Origin: Squalus acanthias
Lineage: Eukaryota
Direction of reading: 5' to 3'
DNA: 64,000 nucleotides
NCBI GenBank assembly: GCA_030390025.1
Contig: CM059452.1
Span: forward strand, 7,750,001-7,814,000
How positions within the stretch are numbered: position 1 is the first letter of the stretch; the number at the start of each line of letters is the position of its first letter. The notes beneath the pieces were generated by a model, which ran no database searches, was not told the origin of the DNA, and saw only the letters and a list, made by a program, of their open reading frames with translations. A program made the position numbers and the translations under genes. Below are positions 890-35,619 of this stretch, in pieces.

Positions 890-1271
890 CACAGTGATGG
901 AAAGCAGTCTCAGCCCTGTACAAAAACTGCCATTGGACTGTAGGGCGGAGCTCCTGTCTGTTGGGGTTGTGTGGAATCGCGGGCAGATGCAGCCACAATG
1001 AGCAGCGCGCTGTCAGGCGCTCAAACACACACCGAGAGGAAACCAAATTAACCTCGGATCAAACTGTCACCCAACTGTTTCCAGGAGTGGCCGAGAAAAC
1101 AAACTGCAGAATCCAATCGGCCCGAAAGATCGATCACAGAATGAACCGACCGGTTAAACTGTCCTTTCTGCTTCTGATCAGCTGTTTTCCCTTAAAGTCA
1201 TAGATCGATGTTCAGATCAGCTCCGAGAAAGAGGTTGCTGACAGCGCCAGGAACTTCCTGCTGGTCGCTCC

Positions 1272-2460
1272 GTTTTTTTATTCGTTTATGGGATGTGGGC
1301 GTCGCTGGCAAAGCCAGCATTTATTGCCCATCCCTAGTTGCCCTTGAGAAGGTGGTGGTGAGCCGCCTTCTTGAACCGCTGCAGTCCGTGTGGTGATGGT
1401 ACTCCCACAGTGCTGTTCGGCAGGGAGTTCCAGGATTTTGACCCAGCGACGATGAAGGATCGGTGATACATTTCCAAGTCAGGATGGTGTGTGACTTGGA
1501 GGGGAACTTGCAGGTTGTGGTGTTACCATGCGCCTGCTGCCCTTGTCCTTCTAGGTGGTAGAGGTCGCGGGTTTGGGAGGTGCTGTCGAAGAAGCCTTGG
1601 CGAGGTGCTGCAGTGCATCTTGTAGATGAACACACTGCAGCCACGGTACTCTGGTGGTGGAGGGAGTTAATGTTTAAGGTGGTGGATGGGATGCCAATCA
1701 AGCGGGCTGCTTTGTCCTGGATGGTGTCAAACTTCTTGAGTGTTGTTGGAGCTCCACTCATCCAGGCAAGTGGAGAGTATTCCATCACACTCCTTACTTG
1801 TGCCTTGTAGATGTTAGAAAGGCTTTGGGGATTCAGGAGGTGAGATATTTGCCGCAGAATACCTAGCCTCTGACCTGCTCTTGTTGCCACAGTATTTATG
1901 GGGCTGGTCCAGTTAATTTTCTGGTCAATGGTGACCCCCCAGGATGTTGATGGCGTGGGATTCGGCAATGGTAATGCCGTTGAATGTCAAATTGCCGTGA
2001 TTAGACTCTCGCTTGTTGTAGATAGTCATTGCCTGGCACTTGTGTGGCGTGAATGTTACCTGCCACTTATCAGCCCAAGCCTGAACGTTGTCCAGGTCTT
2101 GTTGCATTCGGGCATGGAGTGCTTCATTATCTGAGGAGTTGTGAATGGCACTGAACACAGTGCAGTCATCAGCGAACATCCCCATTTCTGACCTTATGTT
2201 GGCGGGAAGGTCATTGATAAAGCAGTTGAAGATGGTTGGGCCTAGGTCACTGCTCTGAGGAACTCGTGCAGCGATTTCCTGGGGCTGTGTTGATTGACCT
2301 TCAACCAACACAACCATCTTCCTTTGTGCTGGGTATTATTCCCGCCAGTGGAGAGGTTTCCCCCAATTCCCATTTACTTCAGTTTTACTAGGGCTCCTTG
2401 ATACCACACTCGGTCAAATGCTGCCTTAATATCAAGGACAGTCACTCTCACCTCACCTGT
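1272..2460 (-). mobile_element. CR1-clade LINE 3' fragment (HER1-like), degenerate
   Basis: RT motifs MFADDCTVF and YKAQVRSVMEYSPLAW in frameshifted ORFs 1321-1968 and 1925-2317. The 3' tail (GGATGGGCAATAAATGCTGG..GCCAGCGACGCCCACATCCC, then A-rich) is shared with the SINE at 34.0-34.5 kb. Confidence 0.85.
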
Positions 2461-4636: not shown

Positions 4637-4642
4637 TTTATT
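4637..4642 (-). terminator. Candidate poly(A) signal for membrane IgM mRNA
   Basis: AATAAA on the minus strand about 435 bp past the TM2 stop. An alternative AATAAA lies at 5009-5014. Confidence 0.5.
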
Positions 4643-5076
4643 AATAATTTCACAGAGAACAATTTACAGAGAAGTTTTTAAAAAGTTAACATCAAAGTGA
4701 ATATAACAACTGAGCGTCACATTGAGACCAGAATACAGGCGGTCTGAGCTGCCAGTTATCTGTACAACTGTAACAGACACCAGGAGCTCAACATAAAGAG
4801 AAGGGAACAATCGTGGATTAGGAACGAGAAACGTTATTATTTACACATGAAACATTCAAACAACTGTAAGATGCATTTACATTATGGTCACGATTATCTC
4901 AAACATTTCAAACACAGAGACGGAAATCCCGTTTATGATTTTCTCAGCTACAGATTCTGATCTATTAAGTGAAGGCATTTGACTCTGAGAATCACCAAGA
5001 GGATATATTTTATTTTCATGACACAGAGATGTTAATAAACAAAGGAGGAAAATCCACGGCGTCCAAATTCAACCGT

Positions 5077-5085
5077 TCACTTCAC
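5077..5085 (-). CDS. IGHM: IgM TM2 exon (VK-stop)
   Basis: atctctctgtcacag|GTG AAG TGA completes the KVK cytoplasmic tail after TM1. Confidence 0.82.
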   Translation of the reverse strand: MK

Positions 5086-5216
5086 CTGTGACAGAGAGAT
5101 AAAAGAATGAAGCAGAGATTTAGTGGTTTGTGGCATTTATCTCAGGGATTTATCAATGAAACTTTGTCAAACCACTTCAGTCAGATTGAAGTGTGAATGG
5201 ATTGAGTCTTTTCAAC

Positions 5217-8200
5217 TTCTTCTCATCTTAGGCAGTCCCTGGGAACCGAGGATGACTTGTTTCCACACTAACAATGGGTTCTCAGGTGACTGATGAGTCC
5301 AATGCGGGACCGACAGTCTCTGTCACAGGTGGGGCAGACGGTGGTTGAAGGGGCGGGTGGGTGGGGTGCTTGGGTTGACGTGCGCTCCTTCTGCTCTTTG
5401 CGCTTGGCTTCCGCTTGCTCCCGGCGAAGAGACTCGAGGTGTTCGGCGCCTTCACGGATGCTTCTTCTCCACTTTGTGCAGTCTTGGGCCAGGGATTCCC
5501 AGGTGTCGGTGGGGATGTTGCACTTTTTCAAGGAGGCTTTGAGGGTGTCCTGGAAGCGTTTCCTCTGCCCACCTGGGGCTCTCTTGCCGTGTCGGAGCTC
5601 CGAGTAGAGCGCTTGTTTTAGGAGTCTCGTATCGGGCATGCGGACAATGTGACCCGTTCATCAGAGCTGATCGAGCGTGGTCAAAGCTTCGATGCTGGGG
5701 ATGTTGGCCTGAGCGAGCACACTGACGTTGGTGCGCCTAACCTGCCAATGGATTTGCAGGATCATGCGGAGGCAGCGTTGGTGTTACCTCTCCAGTGCTT
5801 TGAGGTGCCTGCTGTACATGGTCCATGTCTCTGAGGCATACAGCAGGGCGGGTATCACTGCTGCTCTGTAGACCATGAGCTTGGTGCTGGGTATGTGGCA
5901 CTGGTCTTCAAACACTCTCTTCCTCAGGCGACCGAAGGCTGCACTGGCACACTGAAGGCGGTGTTGGTCTTCGTCATCGACGTCTGCCATTGTTGACAGT
6001 AGGCTGTCGAGGTATGCAAAGTGGTCCACGTTGTCCAAGGCCTCGTCATGGATTTTGATAATCAGGGGGCAGTATTGTGTGGGGAGGGCAGATTGGTAGA
6101 GGACCTTTGTCTTCCGGATGTTTAGTGAAAGGCCCATGCTCTCATACGCTTCGGTGAAGGTGTTGACGATAGTTTGGAGTTCGGCCTCAGAGTGTGCGCA
6201 GACGCAAGCGTCGTCTGCATACTGTAATTCGATGACAGAGGATGGGACGACCTTGGATCTGGACTGGAGGCGACGGAGGTTGAACAGTTTTCCGTTTGTT
6301 CTGTAGATTAGCTCCACTCTAGCAGGGAGCTTACTGAGGGTGAGATGGAGCATTGCAGCCAGGAAGATCGAGAAGCGCGTTGGTACGATGACACAGCCTT
6401 GCTTGATACGCTTCGTACGTGAATTAGGTCTGTGGTAGATCCGTTGGTCAGGATCCTGGCTTGCATGTCATCGTGAAGCAGGCAGAGGATGGTTACAAAT
6501 TTTTGATGGCACCCGAATTTGCGGAGGATACTCCATAATACCTCACGGTTGACAATGCTGAAGGCCTTTGTGAGGTCAAAGAAGGCGATGTACAGTGGTT
6601 GGTGCTGTTCCCTGCATTTCTCTTGTAATTGACGTGCGGTGAAGATCATGTCCATTGTGCCCCTTAGTGGGCGGAATCCGCATTGCGACTCTGGGAGGAG
6701 CTCTTCAGCCACTGGGAGAAGGCGATTGAGGAGGATTCTTGCGATGACTTTCCTTGTGGCAGTCAGCAGGGAGACTCCTCTGTAATTACCGCAATTGGAC
6801 TTGTCACCTTTCTTGAGGATGGTCACCATTACGGCATCTCTGAGATCCCCTGGCATGCTCTCCTTCTTCCAAATAAGAGAAATGAGTTCATGTATTCGCG
6901 CCAATAGTGTTTCTCCGCCATGCTTCAGCGCCTCGGTGGGGATTCCATCTGCTCCTGAGGCCTTGTTGTCCTTCAGTTGTCGGATGGCCTTTTCAACCTC
7001 ATGCCGGGCTGGGGTTGTGCTGAGGTGGTTGCGGGTAGCGTGCTGCTGGATGGAGTTGAGGACACTCGCTTCGAAGACAGAGTCTCGGTTAAGGAAATCT
7101 TCGAAGTGCTCCTTCCAGTGGGCACTGACTGCCTCTCTGTCCTTGATGAGTACCTCTCCGTTCTTGGCCCGCAGTGGGGTAGGGCCTTGGGTGCTTGGGC
7201 CATAGATGGTCTTGACTGCGCTAAAGAATCTACACACGTTGTGGTTGTCGGCTTGTTGCTGGATCTCCTGCGCTTTCTCCACCCACCATCTGTTCTTTAG
7301 GTCGCGAGTTTTTGTTGGACCTCGGCCTTCAGGCGTCTGTAGAGCTGCTTTCTTGCTCTCTTGTTCTGTTTCTGCTTCCAGATCAGGAATGCCTTGCGCT
7401 TGCGGCTTATTAGCTCCTGGATCTCCTGGTCGTTCTCGTCGAACCAGTCTTGGTGTTTCCTGGTCGAGTGACCGAGTGTCTGTTCACATGTGCTGATTAT
7501 GGAGGCCTTGAGTGCAGACCAAGCGCTGTGGACACTTTTGTCTCTGCATTACTGGGAGCCGTCACGTTGTTTTTGAGGCGCAGCCTGAATAGGGCTTTCT
7601 CAGCAGGGTGTTTGAGTGCTCCAGCGTTGATTTTCCTGCGCCATTATTTCTGTTGCTGACGCTGTTTTGGGGCTACATTGATGGAGATGACAGAGCAGAT
7701 TAGGCGGTGGTCTGTCCAGCAGTCGTCAGCTCCTGTCATGGCGCGGGTGATATGGACATCCTTGCTCGGACGATGACGTAGTCCAGCAGATGCCAGTGCT
7801 TGGACCGAGGGTGTTGCCTTGAAGCCTTGTACCTGTCTCTCTGACGGAACAAAGTGTTGGTTTTGACAAGGCCAGGTTCTAAGCATTTCGTCAGGAGGGT
7901 ACCGTTGGAGTTGGCTTTCCCTACCCCTTCTCTGCCGATCACACCTCCCCAGAGGTCTGTGTCCTTTCCAACTCTGATGTTGAAGTCGCCGAGGAGGATC
8001 AGCTTGTCGCCCTTTGGGACTCGGGACAGGGATTGTTGGAGACTGAAGTACACTTCCTCTTTGGTCTCCTCTGTGGCTTCCAGTGTTGGGGCGTATGCAC
8101 TGATGACCGTAGCGCACTGATTCTGGGCTAGGGTGAGCCGTAGAGTCATGAGGCGTTTGTTTATTCCACAAGGGGAGTCTCTGAGACATTCAACTAGCTC

Positions 8201-8595
8201 ATTTTTTATGGCGAAGCCTATCCCATGGAGACGGCGTTCTTCTTCAGGTTTGCCTTTCCAGAAGAAGGTGTAACCACCACCTTGCTCCTTGAGCTGGCCT
8301 TCCCCTGCCCACCGGGTCTCGCTTAGGGCGGCGATGTCCATGTCGAAACGTCTGAGCTCCCGGGCAACAATAGCAGTACGGCCTTCCAGTCTGTCACTGT
8401 TGGGGTTGTCCATGAGAGTCCTGACGTTCCAGGACCCGAACTTCATTTTAAAGGGTGGAAAATGCCTGTGCGTGAATTCTTTTAACGTGGGGTGGCAGTT
8501 GCACACCAGCTACCACACGGGCTTGACAAAGCAAAGTCTTGGTCCAATGGAAAGGGGATCCAAGACGATTGGAGACCAGGCTCTGCTACATCGGC
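5217..8595 (-). mobile_element. Near full-length RTE-clade LINE (AP endonuclease + RT), frameshifted, in the TM1-TM2 intron
   Basis: MKFGSWNVRTL..DIAALSETRW..ILLGDFN (APE domain); PESQCGFRP, FFDLTKAF and LQYADD (RT); C-terminal CPTCDRDCRSRIGLISHLRTH. Split over several frames. Confidence 0.92.
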
Positions 8596-8719
8596 CGAGC
8601 ACACACACACAAACATACTCCAACTGCCCTCCTCCCTCCTCCCGCAGGTCCTCTCTGCCTGGGTTTCACACGCTGCAGTGTGGTCCCCCCGACCCCGCTG
8701 CTGGTCCACGCTGCGCCAC

Positions 8720-9130
8720 TCCTGGGCCTCGACCTCGCTGCTGGGCTCGTCCTCGCTCCTGGGCCTCGTCCTCGCTCCTGGGTCCCGACCTCGCTCCTGG
8801 GCCCCGTTCTCGCTCCTGGGTCCCGACCTCGCTCCTGGGCCTAGATCTCGCTCCTGGGCTCCGTACTCGTCCCTGGGCCTCGTCCTCGCTCCTGGGCCTC
8901 GACCTCGCCCCTGGGTCTTGTCCTCGCTCCTGGGTCCCGACCTCGCTCCTGGGCCTCGACCTCGCTCCTGGGTCCCGAACTCGCTCCTGGGCCTCGTTCT
9001 CGCTCCTGGATCCCGTCCTCCTTTTAGTGTGTCTCCTTCCAGTGAGTGTGTCCCGCGGTGCGTCTCCTTCCAGTGAGTGTGTCCCACGGTGCGTCTCCTT
9101 CTAGTGAGTGTATCCCGCGGTGCGGCTCCT
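8720..9130. repeat. GC-rich minisatellites (about 19-bp CCTCGCTCCTGGGCCTCGA-like and about 30-bp GTGCGTCTCCTTCCAGTGAGTGTGTCCCGCG-like units)
   Basis: Visible tandem repetition; it produces the spurious ORFs at 8289-9135. Confidence 0.85.
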
Positions 9131-9142
9131 TCCACTTCTCAC

Positions 9143-9270
9143 CTTCACGAGAGTGACGGCAGTGCTGTAGGAAATGCTCAGGACGAACAGGATGATGAAT
9201 GTGGAAGCGGTTGTCCAGATGTTGCCGTTCTCTTCCTCATAGTCTTCAATCGAGATGTGGTCTGAGGAAT
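9143..9270 (-). CDS. IGHM: IgM TM1 exon
   Basis: ccccgtag|(D)SSDHISIEDYEEENGNIWTTASTFIILFVLSISYSTAVTLVK|gtgag. Typical Ig transmembrane (CART) pattern, in phase with the internal Cmu4 donor at 14069. Confidence 0.93.
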
Positions 9271-13978: not shown

Positions 13979-14006
13979 TAAGAACTGAAATGCAATCGAG
14001 AAATTC

Positions 14007-14398
14007 TCATTGACAAGAATTGACGGTGTCCATCAGAACAAGGGAAATGTTCACAAAACTGGGTTTACCGCTGGATTTATTAGCGGTTCTGTTGATGATC
14101 TTCAAGGGGATCGCTTCATGTCCCACCACACAGGAGTAAGAAGCGCCGCTGGCCCACTCCTCCGCTGCAATGGATAACAGGCTGTACATGAAGAAGGAAC
14201 TGCTGCCGTTCTCCGCCATCACCTCGGTGTTCTTGTAGTTGCCGGAATTCACCGGCTTGTCATTGACGGTCCACTTGACGAAGATCTCTCGCGGGGAGAA
14301 ACCTTTCACTAAGCAGGTGAGGGTGACGAACCACTGAGCGGAGACTTCTTCTGCCGGGGGCAGGAGGACAGACACGGACGGTTCCCGCGGATCTTCAA
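14007..14398 (-). CDS. IGHM: IgM Cmu4 exon + secretory tail
   Basis: ttctgcag|(V)[53 protein letters not shown]|GTAAA internal donor. Tail [20 protein letters not shown] has the N-glycosylation sequon and penultimate Cys. Confidence 0.96.
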
Positions 14399-14915: not shown

Positions 14916-15224
14916 CTTTTTCCTTGTGGATGGAATCTCTTATAGGAGTCGGCATATCCTGATGGCTCACCACGCAGTAGAATTCATCCCCTCTCAGCCA
15001 GGCTTGTGTCGAGATGTTTAAGTTGCTGATCACGCTGTTGGGAGCCTCTCCGCGTTGGACGGCAATCTCTGATTTCAAAGTCTTCTTTTCTCGGGTCCAG
15101 GACACGTTGACTCCATAAGGAGCATTAGACACGACGCAGGTTAAGGTCACCGTCGCCTCCAGTAAGATCTGTTCTAGTGACGGTTGCGGAAGAGTGATTT
15201 CTGGTTTGCTGCATGAGGAATCAA
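14916..15224 (-). CDS. IGHM: IgM Cmu3 exon
   Basis: ttcacag|(V)[65 protein letters not shown]|gtgag; 309 nt, phase 1. Confidence 0.95.
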
Positions 15225-17249: not shown

Positions 17250-17561
17250 CCTTAGATCTGGAGATGTTTCGGCTTTGGGTGACCCCTTGATGAGAGACCT
17301 GGCAGGTATAGACCGAGCCGGCGAACCACTGCCCGGCGGGAAATGTCAGCCGACTGGTCGCCGCGAAGTTCCCGTTCAATTCAAAGACGGGAGAGGTGAC
17401 GAAGCCCGAATCCATGGGCTGTCCATTCTTCAGCCAATTCACGGTCAGTGACATTGGACGGAAATCGATGATTGAACAGACGGTGTTTGCAGACCTGCTG
17501 CTGATGATTTCTTCACTGGAACTCAGGGTGAGGATCACAGTTGGATGATGTACCACACGAT
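17250..17561 (-). CDS. IGHM: IgM Cmu2 exon
   Basis: tcttacag|(D)[59 protein letters not shown]|gtaag; 312 nt. Confidence 0.95.
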
Positions 17562-18815: not shown

Positions 18816-19115
18816 CTGGCATTTTGACGCTCCAGTCCGTCTCACTTCGTCGAACCTGGCAGTAGATGGCGCTGCTCCCCACCTCTGACTCGGTGATGGT
18901 TAACTGGCTGCTCAGGGTGTAGGTTCCCTTCTTGTTGAACACTGACGGGTAGGTCTTCAATCCAGTGGTGATCGGCTCTTTATCTTTACTCCAGGAAAGG
19001 CTGGTGATTTCCGGGAAGTAGTCCATCGCCAAACAGCCGTAGGTGACGGGGCCGCCGGTGTTGGGTTGTTCACAGGAGGAGAGCAGGACGTAGAGGGTGG
19101 GAGGAGACTGTGTCG
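18816..19115 (-). CDS. IGHM: IgM Cmu1 exon
   Basis: ttcccag|(A)[68 protein letters not shown]|gttag; 300 nt; shark Cmu1 signature. Confidence 0.95.
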
Positions 19116-20899
19116 CTGGGAAAGAATGGCCAATTGAACAAGTTAGACTCTGTAATCCGTGCTTATAACATAACCAAACAACTCGAAATGTGACTACAGG
19201 ATGAACAATTCCATCATTTGCCGATCAAAACCTAGATCAGTATTTGAGTTTCTGTGACTTGTGAGACCCGACGTGAAATGCCTTCATGTGACTCCAGTCT
19301 TGTACATAAGAAAAGTCAGGAGTCTGAAAGGGGCATTCTGTCCATGAGGCCCCTTTATACCGAGTGAATGCTGGAATATTGTATCGTGGACTTCCTCCAG
19401 CTCTTGATCCCCTGTTATGGAACACTCCCCTCATTCCCCAACCACTTTCACATTAGATTCTTTCACATTCTGTCCACTGAGCTCCTCCCTACATCCTTTT
19501 GCTGTCAGCCTCTTATTATCAGCACAGAATCAGGCCATTTCCATGATATCAAAGTGTCGTCATCTCTCCATTGTAAGATGCTGCCTTAAAACCTACCTCT
19601 TTGACCAAGCTTTTGGTCAACTGTCAGAGTAACTGCCAACCATACTAAAGAATAAAATGATATATCCTTATGTGGCTCGGTGTCAGATTGTATCTGCTTC
19701 CGCTCCTGTGAATCGTCTTGGGACGTTTTACTACGTTAAAGGCGCTATATAAATGCAAGTTGTTGTTTTCAGGGGATAGACTTGTTTGAATAGCGGTGGG
19801 ATTAGTTCTCCTAATCACACAACTCCTACAGCTAGATCTACTAGTTGTATTACCTTTAAAACAAATCCCAGCATGTTTATAGAGCATGACCAGAATTATA
19901 AAATATTACAACTTTACAGCACAGAAGGAGGCGATTCGGCCTATCGCTCCTCTGAAAGATCTCTCCACCAATCCCTTGCACCTTCCAATTCCCAATCTTC
20001 TCAACTGTGCAATTTTATCGAGCTATTGTGGATTCTGCATGCAGCCCTCTTTCTGATAGGACATCCCATGTTTAACAGCCCCCTGTGTAGAAAAGTAGAA
20101 TAATACCCTCTCCCTTCATTCTGTTGCTGCTGATTTTCAATCAGTGCCAGTTACTCACCAACTCACCGACTCGGGGAAATATGTTTCCCGAATCCCTTCA
20201 TAAAACCCTTTAAAATTCCAAACCCCTCTATCAGACCTCATCTAAATCTTCTTTGTTCCCATGACAATAAAGGACGTTTACAATAAATGGTTGAAGTCTC
20301 CTTTAAAATGTGAGCGGAATAATTTAGCGCACAGATTTGAATAGGGAACTTTTGCACAGCCTGGTTTCTAAGATTCAAGCTTTAGGTGAATCGGGATTGA
20401 TTCGAGTCTCTCTCTTTCCTTCTCAGAATTGGAGGGAGAGCGATGCAGTGTGACTTGTGCTCTATCCCATTCTACTGAATGGATATCTCCAAACTTTCCT
20501 CCTCTTAATCACTCAATTAAATAATCCGAATTAAATACAATTCCCAAAGCCGGTTATATGGAACGATGCTCTTTAAATGCTCCATTTCATTTTCCAAATT
20601 ACTTTCCAACCTCCCACCAGTGAGAACAGGCGCTGCTTTCTGGGCCGTTACAGTCACTTCTTGTTGCTGTTTCTACCGAACATAATCTAAACATCGGGAC
20701 AGGTTTCTTCTTTAAATATCTAATATTGGCAATCCTTAAACATTATAAATCGATTGGTTATCAGCGGGTTCTATGCAAGGAAGGACAAACAATAACTAAT
20801 GTGCTGACTGCTGATATGGGCAACTCTGGCTTCTGGTTTGTGCGGGGATGCAAGAGCAGGGGGACCTGGGGAGCTTATTCACAAATCTTTGAAGGTGGC

Positions 20900-21510
20900 A
20901 GGGCAAGTTGATCAGGGGGTTACGGACGTGTGTGGGATACTTGCCACTGCAATAGGGGCATTGAATAGAAAAACAAGGAAGTCCTGCTAAACCTTTACAA
21001 ATCACTGGTTAGGCATCAGATGTAGCAGTGTATTCAATTCTGACCATCACAATTTTGGAAGGATGACAAGGCCTTGGAGAGGGTACAGAGGAGGTTGACC
21101 AGGATGATACCGGGGATGAGAGACTTCAGTTATGCGGAGAGATTGGATACGCTGGGATTGTTCCTTGGTGCAGAGAAGGTTAAGGGGAGACCTAATAGAG
21201 CTGTTCAAAATTGAGGGAGGTTTTGTCAGAGCAAGTTGGGAGAAAAGGTTTCTTCTGGCGAGTTTGTCGGTAACCAAAGGTCACTGAATTAAAATAATTG
21301 GCAAAATATCTAGAGGGGAAATGAGGCTCATTTTTTCAAACGGAGTGTTGTTAATTTCTGGAATGCACAAGTCAGCTGGACATGTTCTTGAAGAGACTCA
21401 TTGGAGGGTTACGAGGAAACGTTGGGATTTGATTGGACAGCTCTTTCAGAGCCAGCACAGGCAAGACGGGCCGAATGGCCCCTTCTGTGCTCTGAGATTC
21501 TGTGATTCTA
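20900..21510 (+). mobile_element. Old CR1 LINE fragment
   Basis: Degenerate ALERVQRR..RMIPGMR..RLRGDLIE motifs plus 3' tail. Confidence 0.7.
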
Positions 21511-22239
21511 CACGACTCAGCGGAATTAGTTCTTCCCGATTTAATGGAAAGAAACGCTTCATAATGTTGAACACCTCTATCAGATCTATTTTATTGTTGG
21601 TTATAATGCAAGAGGATATTTAAAATAAAAGGAACTGAGGAATTTGACTCAAATGATCCAATTGGATACCGTCACAGAGTCTTAAAGCTTATTGTGAATG
21701 ACGACTCATCGCAGGCTGACTGTTTGTCATTAAATGTTTCACAGAGGTGCGGCTCAGTGACTGTGAGCCTTGTGCTGTGACCCAGTCCAACAGCTGCACC
21801 TCACCCGAGTTTGTCCCGGCCTGGTACCTTTTTAAAAAAACAAATTGAGCGAAATAATGTTTTCAAACATAAGGTTCCCATGATGGTTATTTGGAGCGGG
21901 AGTCTCGACATTCTCCATTTAAATTGTCAAAATAACTCCCAGCCTCCCATCAGATCAGAACAGGCGCTGCTTTCTGGAGCGTTACAGTCACTTCCTGAAA
22001 CTGTTTGTTCTGAAAGTGAGCTCAGGATCAGGCCAATCTCATTCAATCATTATCTGACACTCAAAATGTTTAAAGTTTACCAATTCATTAAAAATTGGGC
22101 AGTTTTATTTGCAATAATGTTAAACTCAATTAATGCGCGGTTGTTTCATCGGAGCAATGGAAAGTTTTATTTTTATATATCTGGCTCGAGAACTCACACT
22201 TTATTAGTTGGATGCACATTAAGCTTCCTTGAACAACAC

Positions 22240-22610
22240 GGGACATAGCACTCACAGATCTGTTACAGTACAGATACAGAGTAAAGCTCCCTCTGCACTG
22301 CCCTGCCATGCGCTGTATGATCAGGTATAGGAAGGGAATGAATCCGAGCAACGCCAAGTCTGCACAGTACTGTCAAACACTCCGGGTAAGGCACCGCACT
22401 GGTTAAATACAGAGTAAAGCTCCGTCTACATTCCACAATCAAACACTCCCAGGGCAGGTGCAACACGGGCTAGATACAGAGTAAATTCTCCCTCTACACT
22501 GAACCATCAAAGATTCACGGGGCATAACAGCACGGGTTAGATACAGAGTAAAGCTCCCTCTACACTGTCCCATCAAACACTCCCAGGGCAGGTACAGCAC
22601 GGGTTAGAAA
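22240..22610. repeat. About 65-bp satellite (GATACAGAGTAAAGCTCCCTCTACACTGTCCCATCAAACACTCCCAGGGCAGGTACAGCACGGGTTA)
   Basis: Several degenerate tandem units; a related inverted unit lies near 4095-4280. Confidence 0.75.
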
Positions 22611-25600
22611 CTGATTTAAGCTCCTTCTACTGTCTGCCAGACGTGTTTCTGAAATGCTGCTTCTGAATGTCACAAACTGGGTTACTGAGACACCTCCTCA
22701 AACTTAAAGTCAAACTATCGCATTTCTCACAGATACAAGCTTCTGAAATAAATGAGTCGAATTGTACTCCATGAAACACAAGAGAACAAACCAGCAGGTT
22801 TACAACCAGTCAGGAGGACTCCTGATTCTCACACAGTGAGCAGGCGCACAGAAACAGAACAGACACAAACGGTGCAACAATCGTGCTCTCAGCAGATAGA
22901 TCTGGTCAATCTGTCAATTTCAATGAAGCTGATTTCTAATTGATCTCTTGTCAATTTCCGACCACCTCAAGTCTGCACGTTTTTTGAAATTAAACTGATA
23001 TTAATTTGAAAAAGTTCTTCGACTTCCAACCATTTCTCCCTCCCTGTCTACAATCTTACAAACAGATAAGATTTAGTTTCCCTGAAAACAAGTATACTGA
23101 AATAATTCACATTCCAGGGTAATTTGCTGCATATAACTGGGACTCCGTGACAGAGTAAGAATTTAACGAACTAGGAACCACTAGGTTAATATAATTTCAT
23201 AATTAAATATAACCGGTAAAATCATCGAGGCAAAACACGAAGTTGATTCATTAAAATCTGCGGCGACACCTTCTCGAGCTGAGCACAGCTGAGTAAGACA
23301 TGTATTGCTTCTAAATTAATTTTAGACATAATTTAAAATTCTCTACAACCCTTGAGATTTTACAGTAACTGTCATCCTGTCCAGCATACAACGCAATTGT
23401 GGGAGGTCATTTATGTTTAATAAATTCGCACTCATATTATATTCTAAGTTAATATTGATGTTATGCTGCATTATAATAAAATTAGTTGATATTAATTTGA
23501 ATCCTGTTTCTGCCTGGTAACTTGTGAACTTATAGGGTTTCAATTAAATTAACATGACAGTTATCAATATTAAAATATTAAAAATCATATTAATAGATAA
23601 AGACATTCAGACAAATATATTATTTTTATTTAAATCAAATCACTTTTGAATAAGTTAAAATGGTCACTAACTTCCAATACATTCGCGCTCTCTATCTACA
23701 CACTTGTAAACTCTGCATGTTTCTGAACTCTCTGATACAACATAAACTCCATCTTTTCTCAGAGTGGATTTCACATGATGGATTTAGGAGTGAACTATTT
23801 TAAATAGTTCAAAGTCTGGCGGTGGTCACATCTCACTAACTACCGATTGAGTGTAACACCGTATGTTTACTAAAGCAGGGCTCGCGAGTTTAAACATTGT
23901 CCTCAATCTTAACTACAAATACTATTTTCGTGAATTAAAAGACAACCGGCCAGTTTGCAGTCAGTAACAGAGACTCCGCTATTTAATAACACAGACAATC
24001 TTTTTATACTTTACTCCCGTAATTCACACAATGCCCGTAAATTAATTATTAAATATATTCTACTATTTATTGAAAATCAGTTCCAGAATGATCAGTGTAA
24101 AACTGGCGGAGAACAAATCAATCAGACCATCTCCGACACTGAAATTTAATGAGCAAATGGAGGAGAGATTTTGTTGATCAATTTAACATTAATGAGAATT
24201 AAACATAACTCTCAGATGTAATCTGTTCCCTGTCTATAATTCTATCCCGTATACAGCACAGCTATGGGAGACAGGATGTTGTTATTACATTCAAAATAAT
24301 ATTAATCTTGCATAATTAAATTAATCTGCTTGAATGTCAATGGGTTATTTGTCTGTCTCCAGCCTTACGCAGTCTGCACCTTGCTTGAATTTAAATAGAA
24401 TCATATGAACAATTATTTGACTGCCAGCGACCGCTCAGCCAATGATCTTACAAACTGTTTAAGATTAATTTAGTGATAATTGTCTCGCTATCAAACAACA
24501 AATAATATTGAAGGAATAACATGGTTTCCGCTGCACAGTAAGAATTTAATAACCCGGCAGATTTATTACATTTACAAACTGCAATTTACAACTCGCATTT
24601 AATGCATAATTAAATACAATCCGTCATTCATCTGTGTAAAACAGGGAGATAACAATTAATTTCAAACCCACATTAAACTGAACACTGCGGTGGAATCAGT
24701 CTGTTATGAAAATAATTTCAGACATAATCAGAAATTGTCTCCAGCCTCTAAAATTCTCCGCTCAGGTTAATTGTGACCAGTGCACAGCAGAATTGTGGAA
24801 GGAGAATAATATTTAATACATTAATATTAATAATACAGTATATTAAGTGATATTGGGCAATATTACCGCATTCTAATTGTTTGAGTTATGTTAATTTAAC
24901 TCTCCTTCAACCTGCAAATTGTTAATTATATAATTCGTAATTACAGTAACATTTCACCTATTAAATGTGAGCACCGTAAACCACAGATTAATAATTGAAT
25001 CAGTAATTCTCACTTAAATATAAAGATGCATTAAATTATTTTTAAATGATTTCTGATTTATAAAACCTACTTGTTGTCAGCCTACAATCATCTTTCAAAC
25101 AGTTTAAACAGATCTGAAAACCTGCAGCAGTTCGATGTCACCGAGATTAAACATTGCAGAAACTCCAAACAGTTTCACAAACTTTAGTTATTCAAAGTAA
25201 CCCAGGCACACACTCTCCTCAGCAGATAAACAGCAAATCACATCACTGAGGGGCTGAATCCCGCAACAGAACGTTTTGTGGAGAAGCAACTTAATTCTAT
25301 AAACCCTTTCAGCAGAATCAAATGTAACATTACAAAAAAATCTCAATACATAACCCCGCGAACCCATCTATCACTGAACGAATTAATTATTGAAATAAAC
25401 ATAAATATAAAATAATGACAGCGGAATTGTGAGTAGACGGATCATGTTTAATAAATTACTATTGATGTAGCATATTGTTGTAATATTGGGTGATATTAAT
25501 ACATTATAATAATTTAATCTATATTCATTTAAATCTGATTCAGGCAACAGATTTGTTAATTATGTAGTTATTAATTACAATAACAGTTCACGCATTCAAT

Positions 25601-26107
25601 ATGACCATTGGTGAACATTAGATTAATAGCTGACAATGTAAACATCACAAATAAAAATACGGTAAAATATCTTAAGATTATTTTTGACCTCTAAAATTTT
25701 CTGTTTTCTGCCTACAATCTTATTTCAAACACATTTAGTCACATAATGTTTACATTTGATCAGAAAACCTGTAACCATTAGATGTCACCGAGATTAAACA
25801 TTGTAGAAACTCCAAACAGTTCAACAACCGTTGGGTATTTAAGTAACCCAGGCTCACAGTCTCAACAGCAGATAAACACCAAATCACATCAATCAGGGGT
25901 TCAATCCCTCAACAACAATTTTATTGCTGGAGAAACTGTTTAAATCTATTATCACTTTTCAGCAGAATCAAATGAAACATTGCAAAAAATCTCTTTACAG
26001 ACTCCACCGAACCCAAGTTTCAGTGAATGAATTAATTATTGAAATAAACAGAAATATAAAATAAAGACACAAATACAACAGTTACTGAAAGAGTGAATGT
26101 TTCTTAC

Positions 26108-26155
26108 CTGCAGTCACCGTCACCATGGTGCCTTGTCCCCAGTATTCGAGGTAGT
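26108..26155 (-). CDS. IGHJ: IgH J segment (unrearranged)
   Basis: YLEYWGQGTMVTVTA G|gtaag, with the WGXG motif. Confidence 0.96.
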
Positions 26156-26194
26156 CACAGTGTTACATTCCCCGGGCTGGGTCACACAATAACC
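26156..26194 (-). other. JH 23-RSS
   Basis: Heptamer CACAGTG 26156-26162, 23-bp spacer, nonamer ACAATAACC 26186-26194 (read on the plus strand). Confidence 0.95.
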
Positions 26195-26520
26195 GGCTCT
26201 GTGTAAAACAGACAGAAATCCAACATTAGTTTAAATATTCACATCCCAGAGGAAAAGTAAAGTCACGATGGATCTTCATAAAATGATGCATGTGTCAATG
26301 GATACTTTTCACTCTTTATAAATTCCCTGATGTTTTATATTTCACAGAGTAACCCATGAACAGTTAATGAAATCACCAACTGATCAATGATTAATTATCA
26401 CAGTTTATCCATCTTAAGCTGTGCTAGTAGACAGTGCTGGACACAAATAGGATTTCACTGCATCGTCAGTTGGATTGTGAAAGCGAGCACTGACCCAGAC
26501 TCACTCAATTAGTGCTGAGG

Positions 26521-26548
26521 GGTTTTTGTATTGACAGTAACTGCTGTG
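26521..26548 (-). other. 12-RSS at the 3' end of the joined VH-D(D)
   Basis: CACAGCA + GTTACTGTCAAT (12 bp) + ACAAAAACC. Confidence 0.93.
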
Positions 26549-27044
26549 CCACCCAGCACCGCTGTACTCTCTTGCACAGTAATAGATGGCGGTGTCTTCG
26601 GTCCTCAGGTTCTTCATGTCCAAAGCGAAGATGCTGTTTGAAGTGTCTTTGGAGGCAGTAAATCGACTCTCAATCCCTGGGGCGTGATGCTTGTTCGATG
26701 AACTGTAATATCTAACCAGCCACTCCAGCTCCTGTCCGGGAACCTGTCGGAACCAGTGCATGACGTAGCTGCCAAGGTCGAACCCGCTGGTTTTACAGGT
26801 CAGTCTCAGGGAGCCTCCGGGACTCCTGGTCTCTGCCTCTGGCTGAGTCAACACGACATCCGACTGGACACCTGTAAAAACAATCAAAAACCCCGAGGAT
26901 TAATCCTGGTGAAATGATTCCTGACTCTGTAACATTCCAGAGAGAGACTAACACTGAGACAGTAACAGTGAGAGACTTGGACAATAAAAACTACTCACCG
27001 GATAAGAAAGCCAACAACAGACTGAGAGAAATCGCCGACCTCAT
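26549..27044 (-). CDS. IGHV: IgM VH pre-joined to D sequence (leader 26999-27044; VD(D) exon 26549-26871), open frame
   Basis: Leader [16 protein letters not shown]|gtgag. tttacag|[69 protein letters not shown], then a 12-RSS. Confidence 0.95.
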
Positions 27045-27136
27045 CCTCCTGGCAATGGGTGGGAAATGGTTCTAACAAGAACTCACTGAGCAAACCCGCT
27101 CCCGGACTGGTGTATTGCGGTCCCAGTGACCGGCAG

Positions 27137-27220
27137 TTAAATACCCGGTAGAAGGGGGCGAGGTTACAGGCGCCGCCTTGTGATTCCCCCGATAGAGGCG
27201 GCTACTGGATCCACGTCACA
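27137..27220 (-). promoter_or_regulatory. VH promoter: TATA-like box, CTCF-like motif, CRE-like element; no octamer
   Basis: TATTTAA 27137-27143; TCACAAGGCGGCGCC 27169-27183; TGTGACGTGG 27211-27220. Shark VH promoters are known to lack the octamer. Confidence 0.55.
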
Positions 27221-28744
27221 CCCTCCACATCACCAACTGGACTCACAACTGGACTGTCAATGAAATCCCTTTATTTCCTCACTCCTTCACAGCGCATGTG
27301 AATCTCTGAGATTAAATTACATTACCAGGCTCTAAAGAGACAGCCAGTATGTGTTACTCCATCTCTCGCTATCTATCCATTCACTCAGTTCCAATAAAGT
27401 ATCCCCTATATTATGAATTGCTTTTGGTCTATGTACCTGAATGCGGGAGATGGGTGGTGTGATTCTATTTACAATGTGGATGGCTATAGCTACACTATTT
27501 GGGTCCGGAGATGAATAGAAAGCCCTCACATTATACAAGTGTCTCAAATTGCATTTTTCTAACTGCCCCTGAGTCTGTGACCCTAAGACAGTCCTTTATA
27601 AAATTAGCTTTAAAATAAGTCCTCTTGCCTGATAATTAAGGAGTGAGTTGACGGAGACACAAAAAAATTTGAGCCCGCCCGCTTCAGATCAGCTTTTTAA
27701 AAGAGAAGCTGGTGAATCAGAACTGATAACGCGATCAGCAAACCCCGGCATCCAAATCCTTGCAGCGAACGTTAATAGCGCCCGACTGTGTAACAAACAC
27801 TGGTATCAGGAACACAGTATATCAGGACATAGCGGTATCTTACAGAATATCACAAGAATAAATGCTTCATCTCCCGCTGAAACAGATCACAAACTGAACA
27901 TTTCTCTGCCCTTTGGTAGCCGGGCTCTGAGAGGGGTTGTTTAGGAATCAAAATCAGCAAAATTAAACTGCACAGTGCGCGGCTGCTAATCAGTAATAAG
28001 GGAGCCCTGAGTTTCAATCAGGGTCACAACTCTGAGAATATTCAAGGAAGTGCAGCGGGTTCGAGGCAATTCCACCGATTGTTTTATTTACTTTGCGATT
28101 CGCACTGATCTCATTACAGTGTGGGTGTGGGGACAGTAAAATCTCTCTCCAGCACTTCGTGCAGTGCTGAATAAACCGACTGAATTATTTAGAATTGTCT
28201 TTAATAGGAATTTTAAAAATTAATTAGCATGTGGATCCATTTACTTTTTTCTGAACATATTTTATAATATTGTGAGCAAGTCATTTACCGAAAGTCATTC
28301 TTTAGATGTTATACCATGTAAAATGTTTCTTTCTTGTGAGAGCACTGCTGAATAATTTAATGTTCAAATAGTTAAATCCCATCTTGTTCCCATTCATATT
28401 CACGCCAATCTGCCCCACGCAGTATTTGGCAGCAGCCCAGCCGACTGTCGTCAGGGAGGCTCGAACACCCAATGTCATTTACAGGAAGCATCTGGGGTTC
28501 TGTGCAGTGAATCAAAGATCTGTTTCCTCACTACTGACCGCTTGGCTGAAAGCCAACTTCAAACCCTTAACATTGTGAGTGAGGTCTATTGATAAACAAA
28601 TCTACCCAGCAACAGTACTGGAGTCAATTTTAATTATTCAGTTGTGTAACTGTGTGTAAAGGTTCCCATCTTTCAGATAGGAAATATATCCAGCGTCTCA
28701 GACATCCTGTCAGCAGCAGCAGTCAGCTGGAGGGTCTGTCCAGC

Positions 28745-28941
28745 NNNNNNNNNNNNNNNNNNNNNNNNNNNNNNNNNNNNNNNNNNNNNNNNNNNNNNNN
28801 NNNNNNNNNNNNNNNNNNNNNNNNNNNNNNNNNNNNNNNNNNNNNNNNNNNNNNNNNNNNNNNNNNNNNNNNNNNNNNNNNNNNNNNNNNNNNNNNNNNN
28901 NNNNNNNNNNNNNNNNNNNNNNNNNNNNNNNNNNNNNNNNN
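28745..28941. other. Assembly gap (197 N)
   Basis: Run of n characters. Confidence 1.
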
Positions 28942-31759
28942 CAGAGGACCTCAGAGAGAGGATACATTCTGAAATAAATAAGTATGCGTGTTTGCATGGA
29001 TGGATAGATGGATGTAGCGATGCATGAATAGAGAGATAGTTAGATGTCTGAATTTTTATTAATGGATCGATGAAAGGATTAATGCAAGGATGAATCGATG
29101 GATGGATGGTCCTGAAAGTTGCTGTTAGAACATAAGAACATAAGAAATAGGAGCAGGAGTAGGCCATTCGGCCCTTCAAGTCTGCTCCTCCATTCAATAA
29201 GATCATGGCAGATCTGATCTTGGCCTCAACGTCACTTTCCCGCTAGCTCCCCATAACCCTTGACTCCCCTGTAGCTCAAGTATATGTCTACATTCTCATC
29301 TTTGTGAGTCTCTACTTCTTAACACGAGGCAGCCCCTTTACATTTGTGTCAGTCTGGCGCCTCCAGTCCTTCCTGATTTTCTGTATCATTTCACTCCATA
29401 CAGTGTCCATTTATAACGAGCTGAAAATCACGAAGAGAAGCCTGAAGGTATCCATGCGGTACCAAGGATCCTTCTATGGTGATGGGGAATCTCCATCTCA
29501 GAGATATAAAGCGAGCACGTGTCTGGGTTGAGAAGGGACAAGTGTAATATTTGGAACATGTGCTCCTTTCATGTACAACAAAGCACTCAATATATCCTCA
29601 CCCGAATTACTTCAATCAATGCGGAAACACAGCAGATCAACGGGTACATAATTTTTCCACTTCCCTACCTAAATCCTTGCTCCTCTGTGAGACTGGTGCA
29701 GTCACACCATTCTGAACACACGGATAAAAGGAGCATGAACTGTGACTTTCTTTACCGCCATATAGTCATTGTAAGTCATTGCCACAGTGAAATATGTCCC
29801 GTGGGTTTTGGACATTGTGGTCGTAAATTGAAATGCTCTTAACTCCTTTAACCACACTCCCCAGAGCCTTTCCATTCAGCCCATTCATTCACTGAATGAA
29901 TTGTTCACCAGTTGGGCGGGTAAGGTCAATACATCACTGAGATGTGCTCAGGTTGATGGGGTCACCGGGATGTAGATATATGGTTAGAGTGGACATGGTA
30001 CATCATGCAGACAGAGTTGAGTCGGTCAAGTTGCCGAATATGGTGATTTAAATGAAAATTTTGGACAAGATTATTGGCTCAATGTTCTATGACATGAGGT
30101 TAAAGCAGATTCTTATTTCTCAGAAGGTTGTACTTTTTTGTGCGACATGATTAGGTTCGTGGAGAGCTGGTGTAGAGATATAAAGAACGGAATAAGGTGC
30201 CATTATGGCCATATTTAGAAATTACTTATCCACGTAATTTTCTGGTCCAAATGTATAGCTTCAAACCCTATCTTAATGTTCCAAAGGGCTTTAAAATGAA
30301 TTGTAAGTATTGAAGTGTTATTGGTGATGCGATTTTCCGCGAATGGCTCCGAGGGACTGATTCCTGATTCACCCCTCCCCCTTGTATAAGAGGCGCTCTC
30401 TCATAATCGACGGATTATTAATGTGGTTTGTGCACAGTTCCCATTCCCGCTCAATACCCCACACTCGGGAGTAACAAACTGTCTCTGCGCCAAATAACAG
30501 AAATATTGACAGATGGACGAAGAGAGATTTCCGGACGCATTGGTATTTCCCAGGCCGTCATATTACTAAACAAATGATAATTCTCAATACTGTCGGCCTT
30601 CATCGTGTTTTCCAAACCACAGATGTTTCTCAATCCATTGATGGGTTCAATCTATTGATAGTTCCCCAACCATCAACTTTCTCAAACAATTGATAGCTTG
30701 CAATCAATTGATGTTTCTCGACCAATCAATGATTCCCAAACCTTTCAGGACTCCCTATAGATTGACGTTTAACAATCTATTAATGATCACCAATCCTTTA
30801 ACGATTCACAATCCATTGATGTTTCGTTTATAAAATAAGAGAGTTCGCCCACATATCCTTTAGGTTTTTCCCTTTACCCGTGGCCATTCTGGTTTCTCTA
30901 CTAAGCGGTTGGACTTTTAGTAAAATTCCCAGAATGGCCTTGTGATTTCGGTGTCGAATTCAGGGTCACACCTGCAATCAGTGTCTGTACTACCGGCCGT
31001 ACTGTACAACTGCAGTGAATATCTGAGCGGCCCGGACTCAGTCTGAGTTGCCTCTCTATCTGCAATGGAAGTTGAGCCGTTGAATGCCTGGGGTTCCATT
31101 TACCTATTTCTTGTTGATCTATATTTTAATCAGTAATGGCCATTCATCATTAGTAATTGGTGTAAATAAGGGAGTGTTGGATTGATTCGGTAAATCATAG
31201 AATCCCAGAATGATACAAACGAAAAGGAGGCCATTCAGTCCCTCATGACTGCACCAGCGCTTTGAAAGATCTATTCAATTAGTCCCACTCCCCGCTGCTG
31301 TTTCCCCACGGCCCTGCATTTTTTTCCTTTTGAAGTAATTATCCAATTCCCTTTTGAATGTTACTATTGAATCTGCTTCCACCACCCTATCAGGCAGTGC
31401 ATTCCAAATCACAACAACTCACTACTTAATTCCTCCACCCTCATATCGCCACTAGAACACATCTCTGCTCTTCTATTTTATGAGCCAATGAAAGATAATT
31501 TATTGTGGTGACGTACGCAGTTTTTTATTTTGTAATGTTACTGTAATGTGATAGAGCTCGGGGACAGAGAGTTTTTTTCCTGACCATGGGATCGACAGGT
31601 GCTTATGATAAGTACGAGGCAAAAGAAGATGGCAATGGGACAAATTAAGAAACAAAAGATGGCTGTAGATGAAGTGTAAATAGTACTGGCAGAAAGAAAG
31701 ACAGCTGTCATATGAGAGACAGAAACAAAATAAATGGAAAATAAGTAGGGGCATAGGTT

Positions 31760-32820
31760 ATGGTCTGAAATTGTTGAACTCTATGTTGAGTCCAGAAGGC
31801 TGTAAAGTGCCTAATCGAAAGATGAGGTGCTGTTCCGCGAGCTTACGCTGAGCTTCCGTGGAACAATGTAAGAGGCCGATGACGGTGAGGTCTGAGTGGG
31901 AGTGGAGCGTAGAATTAAAGTGACAGGCGACCGGAAGCTCGGGGTCACCCTTACGGACTGAACGGAGGTGCTCCGCAATTCAGTCACCCAATCTGCGTTT
32001 GGTCTCCCCAATGTAGAGGAGACCACATCGTGAGCAGCGAATACAGTATACTAAATTGCAGGAAGTACAGGTAAATCGCTGTTTCACCTGGAAGGGGTGT
32101 TTGCGGCCCTGGAAAGTGGGAAGGGGGGAGGTTTAAGGGCATGTGTTGCATCTCCTGCGCTTGCACGGGAAGGTGCCGGGCGAATAGGAAGGGGTTTTGG
32201 GGGTGATAGAGGAGTGGACAAGGGTGTCGTGGAGGGAGTGGTCCCTTTGGAATGCTGAAAGGGGAGGTGAGGGGAAGATGTGTTTGGTGGTGGGATCAGG
32301 CTGGAGGTGGCGGGAATGGCGGAGGATGATCCGTTGAATGTGAAGGCTGGTGGGGTGAAAGGTGAGGACCAGGGGAACCCTATCGTGGTTCCGGGAGGGA
32401 GGGGAAAGGGTGAGAGCAGAAGTGCGGGAAATAGAACGGACACGGTCAAGGGCCGTGTCAACCACAGTAGAGGGGAATCCTCGGTTGAGGAAAAAGGAAG
32501 ACATGTCGGAAGCACTGGTATGGAAGGTGGCATCGTCAGAGCAGATGAGGCGGAGACGGAGAAACTGGGAGAATGGAATAGAGTCCTTACAGGAAGCGGG
32601 GTGGGAGGAAGTGTAGTCCAGGTAGCTGTGGGAGTCAGTGGGCTTGTAGTGAATGTTCGTCAATAGCCTATCCTCAGAGATGGAGACAGAGAAGTCGAGG
32701 AAGGGAAGGGAAGATTCGGAGATGGATCATGTGAAGATGAGGGAAGGGTGGAAATTGGAAGCAAAGTGAATGACATTTTCTAATTCAGGGCGAGAGCAGG
32801 AAACAGCACCGACACAGTCA
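31760..32820 (-). mobile_element. Penelope-like retroelement fragment (RT C-terminus / GIY-YIG region)
   Basis: TNIHYKPTDSHSYLDYTSSHP..IPFSQFLRLRLICS..FLNRGFP..VPLVLTFHP..CKRRRCNTCP. Confidence 0.85.
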
Positions 32821-34029
32821 TTCAATGATCTTGAATATCTCTATCAAACCTCCCCTTCACTTCTCTGCTATTAGGAAAACAACCCCAGTTTCTCCAATCT
32901 CTCCACCTAACTGAAGTATTTCATCCCTGGTACCATGCTAGTAAATTTCTTCTGCACCCTCTACAAGACCTTGATATCCTTCCTAAAACCTGGTATCCAG
33001 AATCACACACGACTCCAGCTGGGGCCTAACCAAGTGTTTTACAAAGGTTTAGCAAAGCTTCATTGCTTGTGTACTCTATGCCTTTATTTCTAAAGCCAAG
33101 AATCCGGTATTCCCTTTAAACAGCCTATGAACTTACTCCCCCAGGTACCTCTGACCTGCACCCCATTAAAATTGTGACAATTAGTTTTGATTGTCAGGGT
33201 CTAGTGTAATAAACCAGATACATGTACTGGTGCAAAACAAACGGTGACATGGACTTGTGTAATATAAGCAAAGGCATCTTCTAGTGTAATATAAGCAGAG
33301 ACATGGTCTAGTGCAGTAATTATTAAGACAGGGCCTAGTGCAATATAAGTACAGACATGGTCGAGTGCAGTAGTAACTGAGGCAGAGTTTAGGGCCTCAA
33401 CAGATGAAGTGGTGTGGCACAGGGCCTGGGGTTGTACAAAAGGCCAGTATTGTAAGATGGCATAAATCTCGCAGTGTTGTCGGGATGGAGGAATTTACAG
33501 AGATATGGAGCAGCGAGGCCATGGTGGAATTTTAGAACAAATCTGGAGAATTTTAAAATCCAGGCGTTGATGGGTGAACGGGACTTGGTGCCATTTAGAA
33601 TGCGGGCAGCAGAGTTTTGGATGAGTTGGAATTGATGGAGTTTAGTATTATAACCGCTGGGTTGGTTGGCAACTGTTATAGTGCTGTGTGCAGTGATTGA
33701 CGTCTCATTATAGGAAGGGCTTTAAAGTTCTAGAGACTGAAACAGCTCAGATTCACTGGGACAGCCTTGGAAAGGGTAACTACGGTAATAATGAGAGACT
33801 TCAGATTTTCAGTTAAGCAAACACGGCTAAGGGATCAAATCGAGTTTTACTTAATTGTTAAAAGAAGATGTAAAGACTGATTCCTCTGCTCGAGGAGTCT
33901 GTAACCAAACCTTCATCAAATTACAATTGTCAATAAGAGAGAGAGGGGTCAGGATATCTCTGTATAGGGGGTTGTTGGAGGATTGGAATATTTTGCCACA
34001 TAGAATGGCCGAGGTAGTGAACATAAAAG

Positions 34030-34475
34030 GATGCAGTAGTGTAGTGGTAATGTTACTGGATTAGCAATCCCGAGGCCTGGGCTATTAATACATCAATTAA
34101 AATCCCACCATGGCATTTCAATTCAGATTTTTAAAAGCTGGAAATGAATAATCTGGTGTCTGTGAGACGGATCATGAAACTATGGGATTGTGATAAAACC
34201 CCAACTGGTTCACTAATGTCCCTTTGGGGAAAGAACCCTGCCGTCCACATCTGGTCTGGCCGATATACGACTGTAGTCCCACACGAACGTGGTTGACTCT
34301 TAACTGTCATTTGAACTGGTCTCGGAAGCCCCTCAGTTGTATGAAACTGCTGGAAAGAGCAGAAATGTAGTGGTTGAAGAAGAAGGCCCCCCACCACCTC
34401 CTCAAGGGGCAACTAGGGGATGGGCAGCCAACTCCGGCTTTGTCAGCGGTGCCCACATCTCGGGAATTAATAAGA
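34030..34475 (+). mobile_element. HE1-like SINE
   Basis: tRNA-like head GTAGTGTAGTGGTAATGTTACTGG; 3' tail shared with the LINE at 1272-2460. Confidence 0.7.
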
Positions 34476-35619
34476 ATTGGAAAGTGTTAACAGGCAGTGG
34501 CATTCATTTCTGATTGCTGCCAGAGATTGATGGGTAGATGTTTGTAGGAAAGGTTATTAAGGGTAAGGGAAACAAGGCGGGTGGATGAAGTTCTTATGCA
34601 GATCAGCCATGATCTAACTGAATGGCGGAATAGTCTCGAGGGGCTGAATGTCCTCCTGTGTTCCTCTGTTCCTACTGCTTTATTAATATTGGATACATAA
34701 ATAAACAAGATCGAGATTGTCTTTTTTGCATGGACTAGTTGGCCCGAATGGCCTGTTTCTGTGCTGTATCTTCTATGTAAATATGACGCGGCAAAAGATA
34801 CATTTTATGGTTAGAAAACATGATTTACACAGAGCGAGGTGAGAATGTGGAATTCTCTGCCAGAAAGTATATTTGACTCCGACTCTTGTGGAGGAGTGAA
34901 GGGATTTGGGATTCCAGGTACTTTCTAGATTATATCAATTTGTGGCCAATAATAACAATAGGCTCTGGTTACACAATGATCGACACATCTCTCTGTCTAT
35001 CTGTCTGTTTATGACACATTGAGGAAGCATTGTGGATGGAAGAATTGTTATCCTTCTCCTTCGGACTACACCGTGAGATTGGACCATGTCACAGTCTCCC
35101 GCGACCTAACACCTGCAGTTTATGTGTCGGCTCTTGCCCGAAATACACCAGCGGGTGCGGTGTTAAAACACTGAAGTATTTCCTGCAATCCCCGGCTGTC
35201 ACCTGTGAAACCCTTAAACTGACCGCTCGATAAGTTTTGGCCAAAGAAGAGGTGAAGTTGAATTTATAACAGTAATTTTAGTCATTTCGCCCTTAATTCC
35301 TCCTGATCCATTGCCCCTCTTCTGGTTCGCCTGAGAAACTCCTCTAGGTGAACGTAACTCGGTAAATGCGGAATTATGAATCATGTTTAATAAACTCAGG
35401 GGCCTGTAGTAGATGTTGTTCATCAGCAGGTGGCGACAGTGATCTTATTGAAACATGAATCCTGCAGAGGCCGATGTTGCTGTGCCCACAAGTCACTGTC
35501 AGAACAAGGAATATCATTGCTATCAATATTGATAATACTCAGATTACTGCTCAGTCCAATTTTAAGAGAGCATGTACCCTTAGTCATAATCTGAAGGAGA
35601 AATAAATATTGCATTTATT

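Follow-up and report, generated by a model that had tools for sequence, protein, structure and literature searches.

How an IgM heavy-chain V exon of Squalus acanthias came to be followed directly by D sequence and a single recombination signal, whether that fusion is inherited, and whether the gene that carries it is used are the questions raised by the locus analysed here. Partly germline-joined IgM clusters were reportedly described by Kokubu et al. in 1988. In horned shark and skates they include the VD-J, VDD-J, and VD-DJ states, according to the available parts of three reports (PMC2193156, PMC5192425, PMC4279169). The window referred to throughout is the whole stretch of DNA that was analysed, 64,000 nucleotides in length (G000:C29:7750001-7814000).

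At ~ 22 kb, the gene forms an entire IgM heavy-chain minicluster of the shark kind, with its V, D1, and D2 already fused to one another (VDD-J); Table 1 lists its parts. Every exon, from the leader, V, and J through Cmu1-4 and the secretory tail to TM1 and the candidate TM2, is open with AG/GT sites present, and Pfam assigns a V-set and four C1-set domains to the gene product. The features of an elasmobranch IgM minicluster, namely a split leader, one VH, a JH bearing WGxG, Cmu1-4, a secretory tail, and TM exons, were all found. The best short protein match of the VH was a horned shark VH (77% identity), and longer protein matches of the gene included a shark IgM heavy chain (73%). Between TM1 and TM2 (window 8500-5270, minus strand) sits a broken LINE-like element, in which endonuclease- and RT-like frames were recognized by eye, and tandem repeats occur in the Cmu4-TM1 interval (13570-11550), after TM1 (9100-8700), and after Cmu1 (18730-18130).

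Table 1 Features of the VDD-J minicluster, in window positions
Feature	Position	Strand	Remarks
Predicted VH promoter region	27045..27245	-	Sequence comparison with split clusters
Leader exon, GT donor	26999..27044	-	
VH exon up to second Cys, open, V-set domain	26576..26871	-	
V coding end	26568..26575	-	8 of 9 germline nt retained
D1 remnant, 11 nt	26557..26567	-	5′ end intact, 3′ trimmed by 3 nt
D2 remnant	26549..26556	-	Final 8 nt of D2, 3′ end intact
D2 3′ RSS, 12-bp spacer	26521..26548	-	
D2-J intervening DNA, 326 bp	26195..26520	-	
JH 5′ RSS, 23-bp spacer	26156..26194	-	Intact
JH segment (YLEYWGQGTMVTVTA), GT donor	26108..26155	-	
Cmu1 exon, open, C1-set	18816..19115	-	
Cmu2 exon, open, C1-set	17250..17561	-	
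Cmu3 exon, open, C1-set	14916..15224	-	
Cmu4 and secretory tail	14006..14398	-	Internal donor at 14069, end NSCQ*
TM1 exon	9143..9270	-	
Candidate TM2 exon (VK*)	5077..5085	-	Sole minus-strand match in 1-9143; present in second copy too
Tract common to G000:C29:7443603-7457557	20501..34500	.	98.0-99.8% identity per kb

Downstream of YYC, the junction reads GCA AGA GAG TAC AGC GGT GCT GGG TGG (AREYSGAGW; 26575-26549, minus strand), base for base as in the preliminary description, in which remnants of D1 and D2 had been guessed at. Alignment to unjoined D1 and D2 segments of the same genome, with the germline ends of V, D1, and D2 taken from its split clusters, bore out both guesses: the 27 nt are made up of the V end (8 of 9 nt), D1 (a 10/11 nt match), and D2 (8 nt), and zero untemplated bases are required. 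The D1 remnant differs from the closest D1 variant by a single A>G; an alternative parse, read from the sequence, assigns 7 nt to D1 and leaves 4 untemplated nt. The junction fits RAG joining in that the coding ends are trimmed and the inner RSSs and intervening DNA are cleanly absent; P nucleotides were not seen in it, so that it gives no sign of a hairpin step. From the trimming, the clean loss of signals, and the precedent available in part of PMC2193156, we infer that the join was made by RAG. Other VDD junctions in the locus hold unassigned bases (3 in L003 and ~ 12 in L004), and TdT-free joining was thus not universal in the locus. The inherited junction sets nine CDR3 codons, minus trimming.

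The signal that follows the junction is CACAGCA-12 bp-ACAAAAACC (26548-26521, minus strand), as first described. An RSS scan likewise agreed with the earlier reading that the V lacks a 3′ 23-RSS and that a free D is absent between V and J; exactly 326 bp lie between the 12-RSS and the nonamer of the J 23-RSS. The CACAGCA heptamer, non-canonical in appearance, is the genome's normal D2 3′ signal, since the gene's 28-bp 12-RSS is identical to the D2 3′ RSS in 11 of 12 split clusters; for the same reason, a 12-RSS search with a strict consensus returned 0 matches. The signal is not a chance match, as a pattern built on this 12-RSS has 21 matches genome-wide and its reversed control 0. Both remaining signals, the 12-RSS of D2 and the 23-RSS of J, show 0 mismatches to the common forms of the split clusters, and with both signals and J intact, a single recombination step (D2-J) is all that is left to complete the gene, as had been proposed. 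That the fusion was "fixed in frame", as the same description put it, carries no information, because all 15 D variants are free of stops in every reading frame and the D2-J join decides the frame. A blunt D2-J join in this gene is out of frame, so that the final join cannot do without processing, and roughly one attempt in three should succeed. The 393-bp stretch starting at the 12-RSS is 2.5-5.4% different from that of most other clusters; compared to eight split clusters, the D2-J DNA differs by 3.45% on average, while split clusters differ from one another by 2.25% on average (range 0.25-3.82%).

The V-D1-D2 join is almost certainly inherited in the germline, as had been suggested, since the same junction is present in two diverged copies of one assembly. 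The second copy lies 327 kb away (C29:7449193-7450153), and comparison of the two gave 0 differences in 393 positions of the D2-J stretch and 4 in 649 upstream. They share ~ 14 kb (window ~ 20.5-34.5 kb) at ~ 99% identity, and identity drops to 88-97% in the flanks. The second copy has its own intact and different Cmu gene, with Cmu exons 94-97% identical, and carries an A-to-V change in the framework D-T-A motif preceding YYC. Whether the copies represent two loci or two mis-joined alleles, both imply inheritance of the join. Measured against the family majority, the V has 4 framework and 6 CDR replacements, which lies within the range of the seven split genes tested (2-7 and 6-9) and thus gives no sign of a hypermutated clone.

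The VH loci fetched numbered 43 (a lower bound, with 47 Cmu1 matches and 40 of 82 candidates scored in the first DNA search, and with loci on small contigs that may represent the second haplotype of loci on C29). Twelve of them are split and the other 31 are joined; C29 by itself has 26, of which 19 are joined. Joined states were VD-D-J (1), V-DD-J (1), V-D-DJ (2), VDD-J (8), VD-DJ (4), V-DDJ (2), and VDDJ (13), and all eight possible V-D1-D2-J joining states are present across C29:5.96-10.3 Mb and the small contigs (L001-L045, L095-L098). Searched by motif, the DNA fetched at 8 of 11 extra Cmu1 sites and at four further stretches contained no VH. By inspection, the eight VDD-J loci hold six distinct junctions (L001/2, L003, L004, L006, L007/8, and L009), and junctions recur in diverged copies in L007/L008, L012/L017, and L095/L096/L098. 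The VD-DJ locus L020 and the VDDJ locus L024 have sister V exons (100/100) and a common junction sequence, which points to serial joining, with L024 apparently derived from L020 by a further J deletion. L029 and L041 have a common D1D2 junction and different V exons, and the L029 V pairs with that of the split locus L033. In L022 (C449) and L032 (C29:8790000-8792700), the V end has a D1-like tail, GGGGGT, and yet a normal V 23-RSS comes next, with D1, D2, and J still intact beyond it; this looks like a VD1 join with a regained V signal, giving a three-D gene. A genome-wide census of IgM joining states was not found in the literature searched, which had most subscription papers outside its scope.

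Taken together, we consider it likely that this gene is a VDD-J minicluster that arose through what were probably ancestral germ-line RAG joins and that stands one D2-J join away from a mu chain. Two RAG joins would have taken place in cells of the germ line in which TdT was scarcely active or inactive, and gene conversion or unequal crossover would then have copied the VDD cassette to a second cluster. Little TdT activity in germ-cell RAG joins, and VD and VDD genes in shark germ lines, are reported in the available part of PMC2193156. In lymphocytes, RAG would bring the 12-RSS of D2 and the 23-RSS of JH together, with the loss of ~ 390 bp, an ordinary final step given that shark segments join in no strict order within one minilocus, as stated in the part of PMC2435157 that was available. 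The resulting CDR3 would begin with the inherited AREYSGAG, variation would be confined to the last junction, and the mu chain would pair with a light chain into ordinary secreted or membrane IgM. Fewer joining steps could give the gene a head start under H-chain exclusion. On its intact exons and signals, the gene is somewhat more likely than not to be rearranged and expressed at some level; enrichment of its use in neonates is somewhat less likely than not. The literature on such use is divided, with PMC4279169 in favour and, on the other side, PMC2193156 for horned shark H chains and PMC3454362 for opossum VH3.1. Among 21 database proteins (8 near-length and 13 longer matches, from a clustered database with few shark cDNAs), EYSGAG was found in 0.

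The germline join may instead be a passenger: leaky RAG in the germ line would have produced it incidentally, it would have drifted and been duplicated along with the array, and the gene would now be rarely or never used and turning into a pseudogene. We regard this as somewhat unlikely, and the evidence divides. Every joining state is present with no clear preference, and several joined genes have stops or frameshifts (a V frameshift in one of eight VDD-J genes, and V stops in two of six in-frame VDDJ classes). The promoter region keeps, as in the split clusters, TATTTAA and TGACGT, which we take to be promoter motifs (TATA-like and putative, respectively); its site TCAATAGG, found in 11 of 11 other clusters compared, is changed to TCACAAGG in this gene and in the second copy, which speaks for a passenger. 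The framework change in the second copy also counts against use. The D2-J DNA is only 2.5-5% different among clusters, making intact RSSs weak proof of selection, and for horned shark the available text of PMC2193156 states that germline-joined H chains were not found to be expressed. Against decay, two complete copies have all exons and signals intact, and six of seven independent VDDJ junctions (L025/31, L028, L036/39, L037/45, L040/42, L095/96/98, and L024) are in frame (P = 0.007 against an expected 1/3), an excess suggesting that joined genes, taken as a class, are under selection. An early expression advantage has also been reported for joined clusters, in the available portions of PMC4279169 and PMC5192425. 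At the other extreme stands a bolder version of the germ-line RAG reading, which we think unlikely: RAG would have edited the IgM array repeatedly and stepwise, in line with the eight joining states, the conversion of a 2-join into a 3-join gene, and the in-frame excess, and the VDD-J cassette would have been selected and gene-converted onto a second Cmu gene as a fast, one-step, semi-public antibody. If true, the VDD-J cassette with its inherited CDR3 stem would form a heritable tier midway from innate-like to adaptive IgM.

Selection could also have kept the join as insulation. Through the 12/23 rule, this explanation depends on TCR delta D and J segments carrying a 5′ 12-RSS: a V with a 12-RSS only could not go to TCR delta D or J, neighbouring TCR Vs would find no free D, and the gene would be restricted to B cells. 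The surroundings offer the opportunity, in that ten TCR alpha/delta-type V exons with a 23/24-RSS flank the IgM cluster in the window (658-890, plus strand; 39350-60611, both strands), and their relatives, dozens of V exons in all, are interspersed with IgM clusters over ~ 4.3 Mb (C29:5.99-10.3 Mb). Two of the ten have stops, and the one such exon searched had TCR alpha/delta chains as its best single-V PDB matches. Trans-rearrangement from IgH V to TCR delta is described as common in sharks in the available text of PMC12227049. Nevertheless, 7 of 26 clusters on C29 are still split, this array also retains V-free states, V-DDJ among them, and nothing points to selection for insulation; we hold this explanation to be improbable.

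A still less probable origin of the VDD segment is deletion without RAG, retroposition, or the direct joining of V to D2 with D1 passed over and N bases inserted. GTACA starts both D1 and D2 in most clusters and the D1 match contains one mismatch, both of which speak for such an origin. However, the stretch following V is 19 nt long, compared to 14-15 nt for the longest single D, and since it exceeds any single D, two Ds must be present; a 10/11 match to the eight D1 variants arose in 51 of 200,000 random 11-mers and 162 of 200,000 shuffles, i.e., by chance in < 0.1% of trials. Inside the junction no RSS remnant was found, and the retained leader intron and D2-J DNA indicate that the gene is not a processed copy. 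Finally, that the assembly caught a somatic VDD-J partial rearrangement is barely credible, for although these are common in shark thymocytes and occur in B cells, their junctions are each unique with N/P additions (as far as given in the available text of PMC2435157), whereas this junction needs none and occurs twice with ~ 1% divergence across 14 kb, which implies inheritance for loci and alleles alike, and other junctions of the locus likewise recur in diverged copies.

The VDD-J gene is an added example of an arrangement long known in sharks. Like the joined clusters of horned shark and skates, as presented in the available parts of PMC2193156, PMC5192425, and PMC4279169, it is a V-D1-D2-J-Cmu minicluster with V and D germline-fused, the RSS cleanly lost, and a 12/23 pair intact; it differs from them in its lineage-specific junction, for which the split clusters of its own genome allowed a parse here, and in its two copies on different Cmu genes. 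Nurse shark IgM1gj is also a germline-joined IgM-class H chain and provides a precedent for neonatal expression, but it is fully VDJ-joined and without Cmu2, whereas in this gene J is separate and Cmu2 intact (PMC4279169 and PMC5192425, both available in part). Nurse shark NS4 (kappa) light chains, also germline-joined, resemble it as recent joins from split relatives with trimmed ends and little sign of TdT; they differ as light chains with a single complete V-J join, for which expression in pups has been shown (PMC2193156, same portion). Opossum VH3.1 is similarly a V germline-fused to D that needs one recombination step to JH, although it belongs to a mammalian translocon locus and, in the accessible part of PMC3454362, is seldom used and does not show up until later in development. 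IgH miniclusters that are linked to TCR alpha/delta and interspersed with TCR-type V exons are a feature shared with the elasmobranch antigen-receptor complex outlined in the available text of PMC12227049, which does not catalogue joining states. H-chain germline joins are considered hard to dissect and their biological significance is held in doubt in the part of PMC2193156 consulted. This gene could serve as a test case of whether and when partly joined H genes are used, as its junction is readable against split relatives 3-7% away and it is duplicated, intact, and marked by a unique CDR3 tag. The locus-wide series of joining states is more interesting than this single gene, and the whole array, with 31 of 43 fetched loci joined, could reveal in what order and at what rate RAG events occur in the germ line and how selection acts on them.

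The V sequence itself has F37 and E44 in FR2 (window 26760-26720, minus strand; Kabat numbering), which we presume to be VHH-like. The hallmarks of VHH-like antibodies are a set of FR2 residues at Kabat 37/44/45/47 and the loss of CH1, and a heavy-chain-only reading of this gene was rejected because L45 and W47 are retained and Cmu1 is intact. F37 was found in L030 too and E44 in the catshark protein P0003, and the FR2 of L029 and L033 deviates further (WYRQVPRQRLEFV). A V-exon tree of 32 of the 43 loci, omitting 6 second-family V exons and 5 later additions, grouped L001 and L002 at 100/97 and did not single out a nearest split relative. The second VH family (L006-L009, L011, L018, and L095-L098) has ~ 68% DNA identity, the same D2-J DNA, and the same Cmu type; its joining states include VDD-J in four of nine loci and VDDJ in three of nine. 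In the cloudy catshark, the predicted protein P0004 runs on from its V, by way of a short junction, into the same D2 12-RSS, and the VDD-J type of joined state is thus not confined to this genome.
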